A stretch of DNA of 64,000 nucleotides, from NCBI GenBank assembly GCA_031292525.1, contig JARLGY010000010.1, positions 90,806 through 154,805 of the forward strand. Direction: 5' to 3'. Positions 4,857 to 10,856 of the stretch are shown here, piece by piece. Positions within the stretch are counted from its first letter, which is position 1. The number at the start of each line of letters is the position of its first letter. The DNA is from Flavipsychrobacter sp. Its GTDB lineage: Bacteria > Bacteroidota > Bacteroidia > Chitinophagales > Chitinophagaceae. The notes under the pieces are model-generated. The model was not told the DNA's origin and made no database searches. It was given only the letters and a program-made list of their open reading frames with translations. The position numbers and the translations under genes are program-made.

Positions 4857-4936
4857 GAAAGAAAAGTATCCGGTTAGCTATCGCCATCATTTTATTGATG
4901 GCGATAGTTGCCATTATTGATTTTAAATGCAGGTAG
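4853..4936 (+). CDS. 27-aa hydrophobic small ORF (MRKKSIRLAIAIILLMAIVAIIDFKCR) overlapping the mgtA stop codon (ATGA)
   Basis: My own translation. It has a basic N-terminus followed by about 17 hydrophobic residues. The ATG at 4853 overlaps the mgtA TGA at 4854-4856. The nearest hairpin follows this ORF, not mgtA. Confidence 0.4.
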   Translation: MRKKSIRLAIAIILLMAIVAIIDFKCR

Positions 4937-4953
4937 AAAACTCCTATTCGTTT

Positions 4954-4982
4954 AAAAGAGCGTTCATTTTTAAGGCTCTTTT
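4954..4982 (+). terminator. Weak hairpin after mgtA and the small ORF
   Basis: aaaagagc (4954-4961) pairs with gctctttt (4975-4982) around a 13-nt loop. The stem is A/T-rich. Confidence 0.35.
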
Positions 4983-5024
4983 AAAAATGCTCATGTCGTG
5001 ATAGGTTCGATAGTCAAAAAGGAT

Positions 5025-5071
5025 GACCCATTTTGACTCGAACCAACCAGCACTGAAAATCAATGCATTGC
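5025..5071 (-). repeat. Decayed tRNA-like fragment (T-arm-like GGTTCGAGTC), left copy
   Basis: The minus strand reads ...GCATTGATTTTCAGTGCTGGTTGGTTCGAGTCAAAATGGGTC. No complete cloverleaf can be folded. It is paralogous to 10678-10724. Confidence 0.45.
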
Positions 5072-5090
5072 AACTTCAAACAACGAGGCT

Positions 5091-5136
5091 AAAATAGTAA
5101 AACCCGCTCTGAGAGCGGGTTTTACCTTACATGTTA
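5091..5136. repeat. Left copy of a 46-nt direct repeat (orphan copy of the tRNA-Gln terminator flank)
   Basis: It is 44/46 identical to 10743-10788. Both mismatches lie at the apex of the hairpin aaacccgctc/gagcgggttt (5100-5122). Confidence 0.85.
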
Positions 5137-5187
5137 ACCCATCTGTATTTTTTTCGAACCAATTTGTAGGAGATTTGAAGAAAATCG
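5136..5187. repeat. Copy 1 of a roughly 50-nt repeat family (AACCCATCTG-ATTTTTTTCGAACC-TTTGTAGGAGATTTGAAGAAAATCG)
   Basis: It aligns by eye with 5853-5903 and 5919-5972. Positionally it corresponds to a decayed 3' part of tRNA-Gln. Confidence 0.7.
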
Positions 5188-5260
5188 GCCTTTCGATTAT
5201 CTAACATTCGTATATTTATTTATTCGTATGACATACAAATAAAATACCGTGCAAAGTAAT

Positions 5261-5818
5261 ATGGGCTTTTCGCTTGAAAATATAGAGGAATTTAAAATTC
5301 CATTAGACGACTACATATCGAAATGGATATTCACGGATGAAAACGAGCAATTGGCGAGTAAAGAACATCAAGACCAAATCTTTCCATTAACAAAAGAAGC
5401 TGCAAATTTTCTTTGGGATCATGAAGTAAAAATCGGCATCATATGTTCAGAGAAGTTTTTTAAAAATATTTCGGCGTTTGATGGTGGATCATCTGGTCAA
5501 CAGACAATTAAGAAATACTTGTACAATTTAGGTATTCCGTTTAGCCAAAAGGTTTTTATAGCGCAGCAGCCCGATACCGCTTTTGTGCTTACCTGGAAAA
5601 TGGTGATCAAATACTCACACAATCTTTTTTTCGCTCATGACCAAATAGTTTGGGACAGAACATTGAATTGGCAACTAGAATTTCACCACGACGGGCTTTT
5701 TACCTTTGGACGAGACTTTATTTACGACGGACAATCTGAGATGCAAAAAAATAAAGAAAAAACACAAATAGCATTGAAAGAAATGGCTGAACGAAAAAAC
5801 CGACACGGTTTCGACTAA
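5261..5818 (+). CDS. Hypothetical protein (185 aa from the ATG; the ORF track starts at GTG 5249)
   Basis: It is the only long ORF in this segment. It is flanked by repeat copies 1 and 2. No motif was recognised. Confidence 0.55.
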   Translation: MGFSLENIEEFKIPLDDYISKWIFTDENEQLASKEHQDQIFPLTKEAANFLWDHEVKIGIICSEKFFKNISAFDGGSSGQQTIKKYLYNLGIPFSQKVFIAQQPDTAFVLTWKMVIKYSHNLFFAHDQIVWDRTLNWQLEFHHDGLFTFGRDFIYDGQSEMQKNKEKTQIALKEMAERKNRHGFD

Positions 5819-5827
5819 ATAAAAAAA

Positions 5828-5844
5828 GCCCCGCAATGCGGGGC
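5828..5844. terminator. GC-rich hairpin gccccgc-aat-gcggggc
   Basis: The 7-bp GC stem has an A7 tract on its plus-strand 5' side, which reads as a U-tract on the minus strand. It lies 10 nt after the stop codon of 5261-5818. Confidence 0.55.
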
Positions 5845-5852
5845 TGAAAGTT

Positions 5853-5903
5853 AACCCATCTGGATTTTTTTCGAACCGGTTTGTGGAGGATTTGAAAAAA
5901 TTG
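5853..5903. repeat. Copy 2 of the roughly 50-nt repeat family
   Basis: aacccatctggatttttttcgaaccggtttgtggaggatttgaaaaaattg. Confidence 0.7.
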
Positions 5904-5918
5904 TCAGCATGATATGAT

Positions 5919-5972
5919 GACCCGGATTGCATTTTTTTTCGAACCGGTTTGTAGAAGATTTGAAGAAAATCG
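5919..5972. repeat. Copy 3 of the roughly 50-nt repeat family
   Basis: gacccggattgcattttttttcgaaccggtttgtagaagatttgaagaaaatcg. Confidence 0.65.
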
Positions 5973-6157
5973 TCGTCTATTATATGTAAAGATATAGTCT
6001 CATTTGGTCGGGAGAACGTGTCAAATTTCGAACTTATTTATGAACCTCATGCAATTCAACATATCATTACATCAGTAGGCCTAACCATGCATAACTTGAC
6101 ATCACTCGATACAACCGAGCACAATACCAAATGAGGTTGACAGGACAACTTTCAAAC

Positions 6158-7636
6158 TCATAATTTGCTTTTGATACTTTGCATATCATTCTTAAATTGC
6201 ATAAGTTTATTATCATCTATTGCAATATCAGGGTAATAGGTTTTAATAAATTCCAGTGCAGAAACTCTACCTGATAATATCAGAAATTTCTTTTTGTCAG
6301 AGGTTAATTTGAAATCTGTTGTCTTTATTGGAGTGGTATCGATTTTTACAATCTTATCGAGATTTCTATCTACAAAGTCCATTTCTTCCCCGTCAACAGA
6401 CAAATTAAATAGCTCATTGAGGACAGACCAGCTTCTCTTGGTCGTCGATTTTAGATAGAGGCCAATGAACGGTTTCTCTGGATTGTCTTCAATAAAGCGT
6501 TTTAATGGGAAATTATTTCGTAATCCACCATCGTAAACTTTTATCCCGTCTTCTTTTTTGCAAGTGAAGTAAATTGGAATTGACATGGAGCACCTCGCAG
6601 CATATGCAGCATGTGCTGTTTTCCGATCTCCATGAGACTCAAATTTTATTGTCCCGTCCTTTACTCTGCTTGCATATAAAGTTATCTCAACCGGAATATC
6701 TGCTAAAACGACTTCATTTTCTTTTTTTATTTTCTTTTTGATTAACTGGCTAATCCAACTTTCTATTTCGTTCCCTGGATATAAGCCACCTTTTGAAAAA
6801 AGGTTAGCAAGCATCTGTAAAACACCTGCGTCTTTAAAATCATTGAAGTTTTTGCTACTCAATTCAATAAGTAACTCAGCAGGTGTATATCCAGCTCCTA
6901 ATAGAACAGCAGCAATTGCACCAGCATATGCGGTAAAAGAAAAATGCTGCTCTAATTCAAGTAGTGCCCCAGCAAAAGCCAAGCCTTTCACCCCACCTCC
7001 TTTCAAAATAATTGCGTACGAATGTTGGTTACTAACAACCAAAAGTAATTTGTTAATAGCTTCATTTATACCAATAGTCAGCCTGGGTTGCAGTTTGGCA
7101 CGACAACTATCACAAATGTGGCCCGAAGCCAACGATAAAAGTAATTCATATTTTTTCTCTTTGAAATGGAAAATGCAATCTTTATTTTCCTTTTCATTGT
7201 GTGATTTTAATTCGGGCTGTAGAAAACTCAGCGCATATCTTACCAAATAGTAACGGCAGTATCTAACTCTATCGTTTACAAATTGATTGAAGTTGTACGT
7301 CGTAAATACAGCAAATTCACCATTTTCGGACCTTGTTCCAAATATATCCTCCCATCTGTTCGATGATAAATAACCATTAACAATTAGTATTATGAATGGT
7401 CGATGGCCCTTTGCCTCCGCTTTATACTCTATAAGCCATTTAAAAACATCGTTTGAAACGTATTTCTCTCTCTTATAAGGGTACAGTTTTTCCCTGAGGT
7501 CATGTTCAGCTAGGCTAAAATGGAATTCGGTTTGCACTTTATTGAGCGATTCGCAAGCTGCGCTCACACTTTTAATCAAATCAAGGCTGATTGTTAATAT
7601 TTCTATTGGATAAGGCATCGTGTCTTTAAGTAACAA
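6158..7636 (-). CDS. Two-domain protein: unassigned N-terminal domain of about 205 aa fused to a patatin-like phospholipase fold with no GxSxG serine
   Basis: Three patatin blocks are present: GGGVKG (oxyanion), ARCSMSIPIYF and YDGGLRNNFP (Asp of the dyad). The nucleophile-elbow position reads FTAYAGA instead of GTSAGA. Position 7636 is a TTG, so ATG 7618 (MPYPIE) is the more likely start. Confidence 0.75.
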   Translation of the reverse strand: MLLKDTMPYPIEILTISLDLIKSVSAACESLNKVQTEFHFSLAEHDLREKLYPYKREKYVSNDVFKWLIEYKAEAKGHRPFIILIVNGYLSSNRWEDIFGTRSENGEFAVFTTYNFNQFVNDRVRYCRYYLVRYALSFLQPELKSHNEKENKDCIFHFKEKKYELLLSLASGHICDSCRAKLQPRLTIGINEAINKLLLVVSNQHSYAIILKGGGVKGLAFAGALLELEQHFSFTAYAGAIAAVLLGAGYTPAELLIELSSKNFNDFKDAGVLQMLANLFSKGGLYPGNEIESWISQLIKKKIKKENEVVLADIPVEITLYASRVKDGTIKFESHGDRKTAHAAYAARCSMSIPIYFTCKKEDGIKVYDGGLRNNFPLKRFIEDNPEKPFIGLYLKSTTKRSWSVLNELFNLSVDGEEMDFVDRNLDKIVKIDTTPIKTTDFKLTSDKKKFLILSGRVSALEFIKTYYPDIAIDDNKLMQFKNDMQSIKSKL

Positions 7637-8009
7637 TTAATGTTGGATCTTCGTCGTAAAGCATTTCACCGGTCTGACCGCTTTCTACCTTCACTCCATA
7701 TTTAAAATGACCTTTTTTTTCTGCCTCGTCTTCTGCAATTCGAACAATTGTCTTCTCATTTTCCTGAAGGATAAAAGGAATATCTAACACTTGCACAAAC
7801 TTCCGTTTCCAACTAAAAGGTGAACTCCTATCAAAATATACTGTAAAAATCAAGCCTATCGGCGAATAGTGCGGGCGGATTCTTTTTTAAAAATCGATAA
7901 TATTCCATTGGATGATTGAGTGCAGTGGAACGACAATTTCGTTTGGGATCCGCAAAAGTTTTTCGGGTTGTCCTGTGAGTTCGATATCTATTTTTATTAT
8001 CTCGGCCAT
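7626..8009 (-). pseudogene. 127-codon reading frame interrupted by one in-frame TAA (7887-7889). It is either a nonsense-disrupted gene or two small ORFs (40 aa plus about 75 aa).
   Basis: My own translation: ATG 8009 MAEIIKIDIELTGQPEKLLRIPNEIVVPLHSIIQWNIIDF, then TAA, then KRIRPHYSPIGLIFTVYFDR... in the same frame. The stop lies in a T5A6 tract. Confidence 0.5.
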
Positions 8010-8065
8010 TGCACTTATTTTACGATAAACATACTAAGAGAATATTTTTTAGTAACAATTGTACT

Positions 8066-8947
8066 TTAATCCTCGTCAAACAACTTTTTACGATTTGCTT
8101 CAAACTCTGCCATAATTGTAAAGTTGATGTCTTTGGCGATGCCTTCAATGTCTGGGAATATCGAATAATGAGTTATTCCTTTTTCCTCTCTTAATTCGTG
8201 AAATATTTCTTTCCGGCAAGCATTTGGAATAAATATTTTATGAAGTGATTTATCAATTGGCCAATATTCTTCCAAAGATTTAACCCAAAAACCGAAATAG
8301 ACAAAAACACCTTTTTGCGCATGTATTCTTACATTGTTATTGTCTGTTTTGACGGCGAATGGAAAGTCTACATTGGATAATGTGTCGAAGTTATACTCGT
8401 TGAGGTCTACAATTTCCGCTCTGTTTATAAAATGAATATTTTCATTTATTTTCTTTGGATTAATACAATAAATAGCGGCACCGTTTTCTGACCAGCCCCC
8501 ATTCATAATGAAATCACGAATGTCTATGGTTACAGAATCCGCAGATAGCTGACCATTATTTTTTTCAGAGACGGCAAAATACGCAGCGACTAGAGGTTCT
8601 TTACTAAAATCCAACAAACGAGTTAATATCCCATAATGTTGCATGAGATATAAATAGTCAATTTCATTAAAGCCGGCACAATTACATAACTTACTATACT
8701 GCTCTTTAAACGAACTTAATACACCTATATCGTTGGGTAAGATTACTTTTCCTTCAGTAATTCGGAAGTTTCTTATTTTATCAGATATGTTGTGCTTTGG
8801 TAACACAATCTTTTGCCTAAATAGGGTTGGTTCTAATTGATACATCGCGCTCGTGTGGCCCCTATACCAAACAGCACCTTCGATATTCTCGATTTCTTTA
8901 ATAATTTCAAAGAGCTCGTTTAAACTTGTAGCAGTATATAGTGTCAT
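8066..8947 (-). CDS. FRG-domain protein
   Basis: WYRGH is the FRG-motif equivalent, and MQHYGILTRLLDFSKEPLVAAYFA matches the conserved QHyGlpTrLLDwt..p.vAlyFA block of the Pfam FRG family as I recall it. Confidence 0.72.
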   Translation of the reverse strand: MTLYTATSLNELFEIIKEIENIEGAVWYRGHTSAMYQLEPTLFRQKIVLPKHNISDKIRNFRITEGKVILPNDIGVLSSFKEQYSKLCNCAGFNEIDYLYLMQHYGILTRLLDFSKEPLVAAYFAVSEKNNGQLSADSVTIDIRDFIMNGGWSENGAAIYCINPKKINENIHFINRAEIVDLNEYNFDTLSNVDFPFAVKTDNNNVRIHAQKGVFVYFGFWVKSLEEYWPIDKSLHKIFIPNACRKEIFHELREEKGITHYSIFPDIEGIAKDINFTIMAEFEANRKKLFDED

Positions 8948-8991
8948 TGCGCTTTTGTTTAATTACAGGAACCAAACTGAAAACAAGCCTC

Positions 8992-9477
8992 CTAAACCCT
9001 CGTTTCATCGTTTTCGACATCATCTTCAATGCTAGTCAATTTTTTCGCAATCGAAAGCAGTGTGGTTATTAGAATGTAGAACGTTATAGCAAAAACAATC
9101 GCGATTGTAGTCTGGACGGATGTTGCGAAATTTGAGTCTTTATTTAACCATGGATAATCTTTTCCAAATTGTTTAACAGATTCAACATAGCCATACTTGA
9201 TCCCAGCTTGGAGTAAAAAGCCAATAGACGCTAATAACAGCCTTTCCCCCTGCTTTGCCGCAAACTCCTCTGTGCGCTTAACAGACCTACTCCAGTTGAA
9301 AGTGACACTCCCAAGACCAGCAATAATTGCCGCGCCATAACTTGTCAGAGTACTATAAGTACTATTATCGAGATCGGCGAATGTTTTAATGAAGACATTT
9401 ATGCATAAAAGTGCGAAGATGATGAATGGCACGTAGAGAAATAAAAGTTTCGCAAGAATCTTAAACGTTTTCATCAT
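8992..9477 (-). CDS. Hypothetical membrane protein, about four TM helices, acidic C-terminal tail
   Basis: Four hydrophobic segments are visible: LLFLYVPFIIFALLCINVF, YGAAIIAGLGSVTF, LLLASIGFLLQAGI and TIAIVFAITFYILITTLLSI. It is 12 nt downstream of the preceding gene. Confidence 0.65.
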   Translation of the reverse strand: MMKTFKILAKLLFLYVPFIIFALLCINVFIKTFADLDNSTYSTLTSYGAAIIAGLGSVTFNWSRSVKRTEEFAAKQGERLLLASIGFLLQAGIKYGYVESVKQFGKDYPWLNKDSNFATSVQTTIAIVFAITFYILITTLLSIAKKLTSIEDDVENDETRV

Positions 9478-9489
9478 GGGAATTCTGGA

Positions 9490-10155
9490 TTATTGTTTCC
9501 GACTTCTTTTGGGTTTTCCTAGTTTCAGCAATTCTGCTTGTACGTAAGAATTGTTTTCGACAATGTTCTCCGCAACCTTTCCCTCTTTTGTACTTGCAAT
9601 CTGAGCGGTAATTACGGTATTACCCTCCATGTTTTCTTCTGAAATAAATCTTTCAATAAAAAATCTGTTTCCTAAAGCTTTGTTCTCAAATTGCGGGAGA
9701 ATATGATTGAGCAAAATTTGATTTCTTTCTGAGAGATGTTTTATCAGATAAGAATTTACAATTTCGGCATCTGCTTCCGAAATTTTTTGTTTTCGCCCCT
9801 TAGTAAATTCTTCCACAACACTGCTAACAATGAAGCCAAGCGTGAGGATGCTAGTAGCGGCTATTACACCTACAAGTAAGAGACTCCCTTTTTCAATTTT
9901 ATCTATATAGAAATTTGTTGTTTCCGAAAATCTTGAATACAGTTTATCCTGAATAGATTGCTTCTCTCTGTACTTTAGATTAATCTTTAAGAGCAGAAAT
10001 TCAATTTCTGCTCTTAAAATATCGTTAGTGATCTTCGAATATTCTCTTATCAACTGTCTAAAAGTTCCATCTGAAATATTTTCTAGTTCAGCATGATAAA
10101 ATCGGATATACAAATCTGGAATTCCAGGACTATCTTTCGATTTGTGTTTTGCCAT
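9490..10155 (-). CDS. Hypothetical single-pass membrane protein (221 aa) with helical, charged flanks
   Basis: There is one central hydrophobic segment (LLLVGVIAATSILTLGFIVSSVV). It is the first gene of the co-directional cassette. Confidence 0.6.
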   Translation of the reverse strand: MAKHKSKDSPGIPDLYIRFYHAELENISDGTFRQLIREYSKITNDILRAEIEFLLLKINLKYREKQSIQDKLYSRFSETTNFYIDKIEKGSLLLVGVIAATSILTLGFIVSSVVEEFTKGRKQKISEADAEIVNSYLIKHLSERNQILLNHILPQFENKALGNRFFIERFISEENMEGNTVITAQIASTKEGKVAENIVENNSYVQAELLKLGKPKRSRKQ

Positions 10156-10677
10156 GGTGATTTATTAAGATGAGAGTGCAGCTATTGCTACTCTTGGGCT
10201 ACTTAAGCGCAGTCACCAGTGGAGTATTTCTACTTAACGAGCTTTGGGTCACTCTATTACGGCAGATAGCCTCACTCTCATCGTAGGTAGTATTAATATA
10301 ACGACTCTTAAGCGTATTTTTTACAAAATAAGCTGTTTCAGTTAGAAAATATACTACATCTAAAAATAAATTTAGGGCTCCTGTAATTAGGCAGCCTATA
10401 GAACTAATCGAAGTAACTAAGTGCTTTTCGGAGTCTGATAATTTTTGCAGCTTCGAATAATGTGATTAAAGGATGAGACCATTTGACTTTGATGGGTATT
10501 GAATTGGTTGCGAGCCGAGATTATTAGTGGAACTGTTTTAAAAGAAATTTGAGCCACATTAAACTCAATTACCCCTCTTTTCTTCGTTTGTAACGAGGAT
10601 GCAACCACAACCGTTTGTAACGACAATATAATAAGAGGCAATTTCAACCCTTTTGAAAAGGACTCTTTATTTTTAGT

Positions 10678-10724
10678 GACCGAATTGGACTCGAACCGAG
10701 AATAGTTGAAAATGAATTGGTTAC
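10678..10724 (-). repeat. Decayed tRNA-like fragment, right copy
   Basis: The minus strand reads ...CCAATTCATTTTCAACTATTCTCGGTTCGAGTCCAATTCGGTC. The T-stem is not complementary and there is no D-arm. Confidence 0.45.
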
Positions 10725-10742
10725 AAATAAACCAAAAATTAG

Positions 10743-10788
10743 AAAATAGTAAAACCCGCTTTCAGAGCGGGTTTTACCTTACATGTTA
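10743..10788. repeat. Right copy of the 46-nt direct repeat, which is the intrinsic terminator flank of tRNA-Gln
   Basis: Hairpin aaacccgct/agcgggttt (10752-10774) is followed on the minus strand by TTTTACTATTTT, immediately 3' of the tRNA. Confidence 0.85.
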
Positions 10789-10856
10789 TCCGACCTGGAC
10801 TCGAACCAAGACAAACAGAACCAGAATCTGTTGTGCTACCATTACACAATCGGACA
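10786..10856 (-). tRNA. tRNA-Gln (anticodon CUG), 71 nt, no encoded CCA
   Basis: Hand-folded cloverleaf. Acceptor stem TGTCCGA/TCGGATA (U1-A72). D stem GTGT/GCAC. Anticodon stem ACAGA/TCTGT with loop TTCTGGT. T arm CTTGG-TTCGAGT-CCAGG. Confidence 0.9.

Follow-up and report, generated by a model that had tools for sequence, protein, structure and literature searches.

A 64,000-nt stretch of a Flavipsychrobacter sp. genome (GenBank assembly GCA_031292525.1, contig JARLGY010000010.1, positions 90,806 to 154,805; hereafter the window) carries two adjacent minus-strand genes, one encoding a patatin-like protein without the nucleophilic serine and the other a small partner directly upstream. This pair is probably a broken copy of a conserved two-gene module that is a candidate defence system. 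In an intact module, the first gene is predicted to encode a cytoplasmic beta-sandwich protein of ~125 amino acids (aa) ending in the motif GD[FY]KYGV...[DE]xDPxLIV, and the gene directly downstream would combine a dead archaemetzincin-like N-terminal domain (N-domain) with a C-terminal "killing" domain. The window module appears to have been hit twice: a 12-nt deletion removes G-T-S-A of the GTSAG nucleophile elbow, and a TAA codon interrupts the partner at codon 41. Because a deletion found only here goes together with a premature stop in the partner gene, which is co-transcribed, we infer a recent inactivation of the whole module. The features concerned are as follows.

6158-7618, minus strand: patatin-fusion gene, 486 aa from its likely ATG at 7618, with a pseudo-archaemetzincin N-domain, a patatin domain and a helical C-terminal region
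7019-7618, minus strand: N-domain (residues 1-200), archaemetzincin-like fold without HExxHxxGxxH and without the Met-turn Met
7103-7201, minus strand: codons of the putative His-Cys3 site (H140 at 7199-7201, C148 at 7175-7177, C169 at 7112-7114, C172 at 7103-7105)
6494-7009, minus strand: patatin-like phospholipase domain (Pfam PF01734 and Foldseek), in which GGGVKG and D363-G-G are kept and the nucleophile elbow is deleted
6920-6928, minus strand: deletion junction TAT-GCT-GGT, which lacks 12 nt present in relatives, the codons for (A)GTS(A) with the catalytic Ser
7626-8009, minus strand: partner gene, a pseudogene in the window, with ATG at 8009, in-frame TAA at 7887-7889 (codon 41) and normal stop at 7626-7628

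The catalytic serine was removed by an in-frame deletion

An earlier note on this DNA, made from the letters alone, had described an open reading frame (ORF) at 6158-7636 on the minus strand as a patatin-like protein with oxyanion, ASxxxP-like and DGG blocks. The ORF is real: it has 287 relatives among 5.8 billion proteins searched, and the 119 that were listed are all full-length (~490 aa) and share 41-71% identity with the window protein, the closest being from Bacteroidota. The start codon of the ORF track, TTG at 7636, is less likely than ATG at 7618, since the latter follows the stop codon of the preceding ORF by 7 nt and is the point at which homologues start, with M-[AP]-Y-x-I-E. The note thus had the motifs right, with residue numbers 6 too high; unless stated otherwise we number from the ATG (TTG numbering minus 6).

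The alignment to the patatin profile PF01734 that the note had proposed covers residues 210-381 (TTG numbering) and, at 69.6 bits (E 5.5e-19), scores well above the gathering threshold of 27.7. The oxyanion-hole block GGGVKG (residues 207-212) and the catalytic Asp of D363-G-G, which in the window stands in YDGGLRNNFP, are invariant in the family alignment, and the ARCSMSIP block is present in the window protein. An AlphaFold2 model built with 87 homologues has a mean predicted local distance difference test score (pLDDT) of 87.7 and a predicted template modelling score of 0.82. Searched against the PDB with Foldseek, its C-terminal half matches CapV, CapE, PlpD, VipD and ExoU (E 1e-11 to 1e-5), in line with the comparison to CapV and ExoU that the note had suggested.

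At the elbow, the window protein reads F-T-A-Y-A-G-A, which lacks Ser and does not fit G-x-S-x-G. The codon that the note had named for Tyr237 (TTG numbering), at 6926-6928 on the minus strand, is indeed TAT. Alignments by phmmer to PlpD and ExoU leave the query gapped at the elbow and place the Tyr opposite Ser142 of ExoU. Every one of the 119 listed homologues has F-[AV]-G-[TA]-S-A-G-[AS]-I at this position, and the window alone shows a four-residue gap (SFTAY----AGAIAAV against SFNAFAGTSAGAIAAV). The same G[TA]SAG is present at all 25 full-length loci in species-representative genomes of Bacteroidota, Acidobacteriota, Verrucomicrobiota, Gemmatimonadota, Armatimonadota, Alphaproteobacteria and Betaproteobacteria, and one homologue that reads KGGGIKS at the oxyanion block (locus L023) has an intact GASAG. 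The absence of the serine, which the note had reported, therefore stands in the DNA, in profile-type alignments and in the comparison with homologues, and it is an in-frame deletion unique to this genome and not a trait of the family, a contrast far outside what chance would produce.

The DNA of the relatives follows the pattern TTY GCN GGN ACN TCN GCN GGN GCN, and the window reads TAT GCT GGT GCA. One relative (L007) has GCT GGT ACG TCA GCT GGT, a 6-nt direct repeat with its copies 12 nt apart. A 12-nt deletion by slippage between such GCTGGT repeats would account exactly for the window sequence, and GCTGGTACNTCN is the stretch whose re-insertion would repair the window elbow. Judged from the sequence, the window protein has presumably lost its lipase activity, and the window copy of the module would be non-functional.

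According to the note, the protein would either have lost catalysis and serve as a scaffold or sensor, or act through a non-canonical nucleophile. Neither proposal finds support once the four-residue deletion is seen to be specific to this genome and to be accompanied by a nonsense codon in the partner gene. That selection has kept a Ser-less patatin as a non-catalytic scaffold or sensor is decidedly unlikely. The ORF is intact and in frame, neither its oxyanion block nor its DGG Asp is lost, almost every conserved column is retained, and AlphaFold2 still gives a confident fold; yet that confidence comes from an alignment of intact relatives, the Ser loss is unique among ~145 homologues and is a single 12-nt indel instead of a substitution within a clade, and the obligatory partner gene is truncated at codon 41. 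An active enzyme using Tyr231 or Thr229 in place of Ser is hardly credible: a hydroxyl residue, the Tyr, does lie opposite the Ser in the ExoU alignment, but four residues of the strand-elbow-helix are missing and not substituted, so that the elbow geometry cannot be preserved, all relatives use Ser, and we know of no precedent for a non-Ser nucleophile in patatin-fold enzymes. The "serine-less patatin" of the window would then be a broken gene and not a new catalytic or scaffolding solution, which deflates the original claim.

Both lesions are small, and no relative above 71% identity offers a comparison, which would leave room for an assembly or sequencing artefact in a genome that really has GTSAG and an intact partner. 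This is highly improbable. The exact window protein occurs on three contigs from at least two samples, and the one contig that we read, from the independent Logan assembly SRR23300977, is 100% identical over 12,439 nt with both lesions included, which makes a one-off sequencing error unlikely. A clean 12-nt in-frame deletion together with a base substitution is moreover atypical of read errors.

Outside the deletion, the patatin protein shows no visible decay, which suggests that the module was lost recently. At columns conserved in at least 90% of the family, the window protein has three substitutions (N91D, P200S and D327E). Counting two deleted columns, it deviates at five conserved columns against zero to four in close relatives, an excess that is not significant, and we therefore discarded an excess of substitutions at conserved columns as a signal of long-term decay. 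Codon 91 (7346-7348) encodes Asp in the window, and Asn is invariant or nearly so at this position in patatin and non-patatin N-domains; N91D may be a third damaging change.

The partner gene tracks the N-domain

The window partner fits its family for 40 codons (MAEIIKIDIE...WNIIDF), meets the TAA, and then continues in the same frame to ...DEDPTLIVT* at 7626, where its normal stop lies 7 nt before the patatin ATG. Both halves match the partner hidden Markov model (HMM; E 9e-30 and 9e-11). All 22 aligned homologues are uninterrupted. In the relatives, the partner is ~125-130 aa long, and the end of its gene abuts or overlaps the patatin start codon.

With the partner HMM, we detected the gene beside the patatin gene at each of the 25 full-length genome loci; it lies on the upstream side at 24 of them and on the downstream side at L015. 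It likewise adjoins N-domain fusions that have other C-terminal parts: a membrane-type fusion (L089, E 3e-23), a TIR_2 fusion (L093, E 2.7e-23), a metallophosphatase fusion, where it is on the opposite strand (L092, E 1.7e-18), and a PNP fusion (L090, E 3.5e-12). It stands beside every close-branch N-domain locus that we examined. The partner thus tracks the N-domain and not the patatin domain.

The partner is predicted to be a cytoplasmic protein, and its model is a beta-sandwich (pLDDT 82). Its conserved motifs, GD[FY]KYGV and the C-terminal [DE]xDPxLIV, stand out. Structural matches are generic and include cupredoxins, phage baseplate proteins, the self-cleaving SO1698 and chagasin-like inhibitors; against viral structures, Foldseek gave just generic beta-sandwich and tail-protein matches with template modelling (TM) scores below 0.5, and hmmsearch with the partner profile gave no match among PDB sequences. 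The partner is like SO1698 of the self-cleaving DP-EP family (PF08985) in size, in its beta-sandwich fold (TM ~0.54-0.57, E ~1e-3) and in a conserved Asp-Pro close to its C-terminal end. This likeness goes no further than a generic beta-sandwich and serves only as a lead: the partner stays below the DP-EP gathering threshold, with 15.1 bits against 25 and a single match among 24 members, at E 0.04.

The N-domain resembles an inactive archaemetzincin

The note could not assign the first ~205 residues to any family and took some of their strands for Rossmann-like. We can now assign the region, from fold matches, NCBIfam and motif register, to an archaemetzincin-like fold without HExxH, and the strands belong to the beta-sheet of this metzincin-type fold. 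The best Foldseek matches of the N-terminal 200 residues are the archaemetzincin (AmzA/AMZ1-2, M54) structures 3lmc (E 5e-6), 2x7m (7e-6), 3zvs and 4axq, with target TM-scores of 0.64-0.70, and further metzincins rank below these four. NCBIfam archmetzin matches weakly, with E 9e-5 for the window protein (22 bits against a cut-off of 145) and 7e-5 for its closest homologue (L002), and it also matches 5 of 26 non-patatin N-domain members, all far under the cut-off. The Pfam scan had no match for the N-domain, and hmmsearch of PDB sequences with its profile gave chance matches only.

The N-domain family has the consensus VRYALSFLxPxIKSH-x4-7-C-x-F-x18-C-x-x-C. We set the motif register against AmzA sequences from the PDB (2x7m, 3lmc and 3zvs), e.g., on the motif ending -x16-CGKC. 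In this register, the three zinc histidines and the catalytic Glu of AmzA correspond to A129, L130, L133 and S139, so that HExxHxxGxxH is replaced, and the Met-turn Met corresponds to Phe150. H140, C148, C169 and C172 do not vary in three family alignments (A1, A2 and A5); in a fourth (A7), each is either invariant or conserved at 90% or more. They lie past the active-site helix with the spacing of the structural Cys4 site of AmzA (CX4CXM-X16-CXXC), but the first ligand is His140 in place of Cys. The note had pointed to a His/Cys cluster that could bind zinc, and the zinc-binding look holds for these four residues; two other His residues of the region, H151 (His or Asp in the family) and H167 (variable), do not belong to the conserved site. 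The N-domain is thus a probable archaemetzincin-like pseudo-protease with a putative His-Cys3 zinc site and, unlike archaemetzincins, it is always fused to or beside immune-type effectors.

One N-domain is combined with many effectors

We used HMMER and the N-domain profile to search 1.84 billion representatives, clustered at 50% identity, exhaustively. This gave 330 clusters at E <= 1e-3, of which 95 reach E <= 1e-30; among their sources are Bacteroidota, Acidobacteriota, Proteobacteria, Verrucomicrobiota and Chloroflexota. Many of the 330 are non-patatin fusions. We used this search for a Pfam census, because a word-indexed search with a non-patatin N-domain profile had retrieved only 14 proteins. 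Among 107 representatives of at least 270 aa, the C-terminal domains were as follows.

Patatin: 21 of 107
CAP12/Pycsar-type TIR: 16 of 107
TIR_2: 9 of 107
PNP_UDP_1: 9 of 107
EAD11: 7 of 107
Metallophos: 5 of 107
TIR: 4 of 107
MCU-like membrane domain: 3 of 107
EAD1, EAD5, EAD7, EAD8, SIR2_2, CHAT and SEFIR: 1 of 107 each

Some other N-domain proteins carry multi-pass membrane segments. The MCU-like (PF04678) fusions of three representatives are an unusual candidate pore-forming effector (identifiers such as P0213, P0233 and P0246 are guesses that were not matched to them). Some members have a hydrophobic, tail-anchor-like end and others have Sel1 repeats (the C-termini of L023 and L028; P0115 and P0119), so that some branches of the family may be targeted to membranes or carry additional adaptor modules. 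In a Flavobacteriales metagenome-assembled genome, a patatin-fusion homologue (L029, positions 5990-7600) is split by several frameshifts. We rejected it as a second natural pseudogene, judging the frameshifts to be probable sequencing errors because the style of the contig name (tig00018968) is typical of long-read assemblers.

PADLOC models for ThsB, CBASS (cyclic oligonucleotide-based antiphage signalling system), Pycsar and CHAT effectors match the C-terminal parts only. The N-domain and the partner have no model above cut-off in Pfam (2025), NCBIfam (June 2026) or PADLOC 2.0.0, and the latter gave no match at all for the N-domain or for four partner proteins. A full-text literature search found no description of the architecture, although absence from these libraries and from the literature searched is no proof of novelty.

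A candidate abortive-infection system

The patatin domain has the same fold as CapV and CapE of CBASS and as PlpD (Foldseek E 1e-11 to 1e-8 for these three) and ExoU, and the relatives of the window protein share with them the GGGxKG oxyanion block, the GxSxG Ser and the DGG Asp of the catalytic dyad. The predicted role of CapV and CapE, a membrane-degrading suicide effector, would be shared as well. In contrast to CapV and CapE, the proteins described here have a 200-aa pseudo-metzincin domain at the N-terminus and a beta-sandwich partner, and the window copy is without Ser. No CD-NTase or cyclase was seen among the neighbours in the window, in the loci whose gene tables we inspected or among the commonest Pfam families of 148 scanned neighbours, and NCBIfam CBASS_lipase scores are far under the cut-off of 200 (20.5 for the window protein and 41.3 for L002). 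The family also resembles the sensor-effector fusions of CBASS, Pycsar and Thoeris (with SAVED, cNMP-binding or SLOG domains) in having the same swappable C-terminal effectors behind one conserved N-domain. Here, however, the conserved domain is a dead metzincin and not a known nucleotide sensor, and the partner is a small beta-sandwich without a cyclase or TIR signal-generating motif.

The evidence points to an undescribed modular defence family within the known modular sensor-effector immune modules. Because the N-domain and its partner recur with TIR, PNP, metallophosphatase and membrane domains, and because the N-domain is also fused to CAP12-TIR, CHAT, SIR2 and EAD domains, the two would act together as a unit for sensing or regulation. 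This unit would release the effector in response to a trigger, for which phage infection is the most plausible candidate; a patatin effector would then degrade membrane phospholipid, leading to abortive infection. Effector swapping, island location and defence-gene neighbours thus lead us to infer that the intact family provides abortive-infection-type defence, in which the dead metzincin domain and the partner presumably sense or gate the trigger, and either of them may be the component that senses.

A rather unlikely alternative is a toxin-antitoxin or effector-immunity pair that does not act against phages, in which the beta-sandwich would inhibit the fused toxin; the window toxin would have been disarmed and its antitoxin would then have decayed. 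The tight two-gene operon with the small gene upstream, the joint damage to both window genes and the weak resemblance of the partner to Ig-like protease inhibitors such as EhICP2 fit such a pair. The swapped effectors (CAP12-TIR, PNP, CHAT, EADs and SIR2) and island contexts, on the other hand, are typical of immune systems, secretion signals are absent, and the neighbourhoods that we examined contain no type VI or type IV secretion system genes. Many abortive-infection systems behave as toxin-antitoxin pairs, so the two readings overlap.

Several points weigh against a broken defence module as the best account of the window pair. The deletion aside, the window protein is well conserved with an intact reading frame, and a residual non-catalytic role is conceivable; with 71% identity as the upper limit among available relatives, none is close enough for dating the lesions. 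The role of the family in phage defence is a candidate role drawn only from context, the neighbourhoods of the genome loci are mixed and include many housekeeping genes, the partner is missing at two distant-branch loci (L087 and L088), and its fold is a generic beta-sandwich without functional assignment.

Following up the window protein exposes a conserved two-gene module in which a beta-sandwich partner accompanies a pseudo-metzincin domain with a swappable effector. If it is a true defence system, it would represent a new type of sensor for bacterial immunity, a repurposed dead protease. More specifically, the dead archaemetzincin and its partner could be an undescribed phage-sensing unit that controls at least ten types of abortive-infection effector across many phyla, a reading that we put forward tentatively and consider possible but somewhat doubtful. 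As a possible mechanism, the [DE]xDPxLIV tail of the partner might sit in the cleft where the dead protease once bound its substrate, until the tail is displaced or cleaved upon infection. Were a phage-sensing unit of this kind confirmed, the window would preserve a case in which such a system was lost naturally, a slippage deletion having disarmed the toxic effector, and the paired lesions would be a small natural example of the loss of a costly suicide module. Intact modules exist in the cultured Flavobacterium zhoui ZS1P70 (L016), Kordia zhangzhouensis (L009) and Pedobacter chitinilyticus (L017), and Proteobacterial ones in Shimia (L025) and Paraburkholderia (L028).

Genomic context

The window pair lies within a stretch (~4.9-10.7 kb; 4900-10700) with a G+C content of 0.35-0.37, flanked by DNA at 0.42-0.45. 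The following features of this low-GC island surround the pair.

10785-10856, minus strand: tRNA-Gln(CTG), at the edge of the island
10677-10797, minus strand: proximal direct repeat, with the tRNA-Gln 3' end, a terminator hairpin and a second tRNA-like fragment
5024-5145, no strand assigned: distal imperfect direct repeat, a copy of the tRNA-Gln 3' end, terminator and second tRNA-like fragment
5850-5900 and 5918-5968: extra copies of the tRNA 3'-half-like fragment
8066-8947, minus strand: apparently intact FRG-domain gene (Pfam E 5e-20; PADLOC candidate PDC-S15, E 5.5e-42), directly upstream of the pair

The repeat block spans ~120-170 nt, and its copies are 70-91% identical and 5.65 kb apart. 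The distal repeat is probably an island boundary, and the layout of the repeats looks like nested or tandem remnants of genomic-island attachment (att) sites. No integrase was seen among the window ORFs that we examined.

Elsewhere, a few of the genome loci lie beside GajB-like (Gabija-like) helicases, AAA_21, OLD-TOPRIM or NERD genes. The module of the closest homologue (L002, positions 4954-9492, and L003) stands beside a cluster of Vsr, Dcm methylase, HATPase_c_3 and Z1 genes, a neighbourhood that looks like a restriction or defence island.

Two further window genes, at 8992-9477 (161 aa) and 9490-10155 (221 aa), both on the minus strand, are upstream of and co-oriented with the FRG-domain gene. 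Their products look hydrophobic and membrane-protein-like and are without a significant family match; the two genes might belong with the FRG-domain gene. A gene encoding a DUF2947 protein (5249-5818, plus strand, E 8.6e-7) stands alone between tRNA-fragment repeats at 5133-5183 and 5850-5900, as if it formed a separate mini-island.

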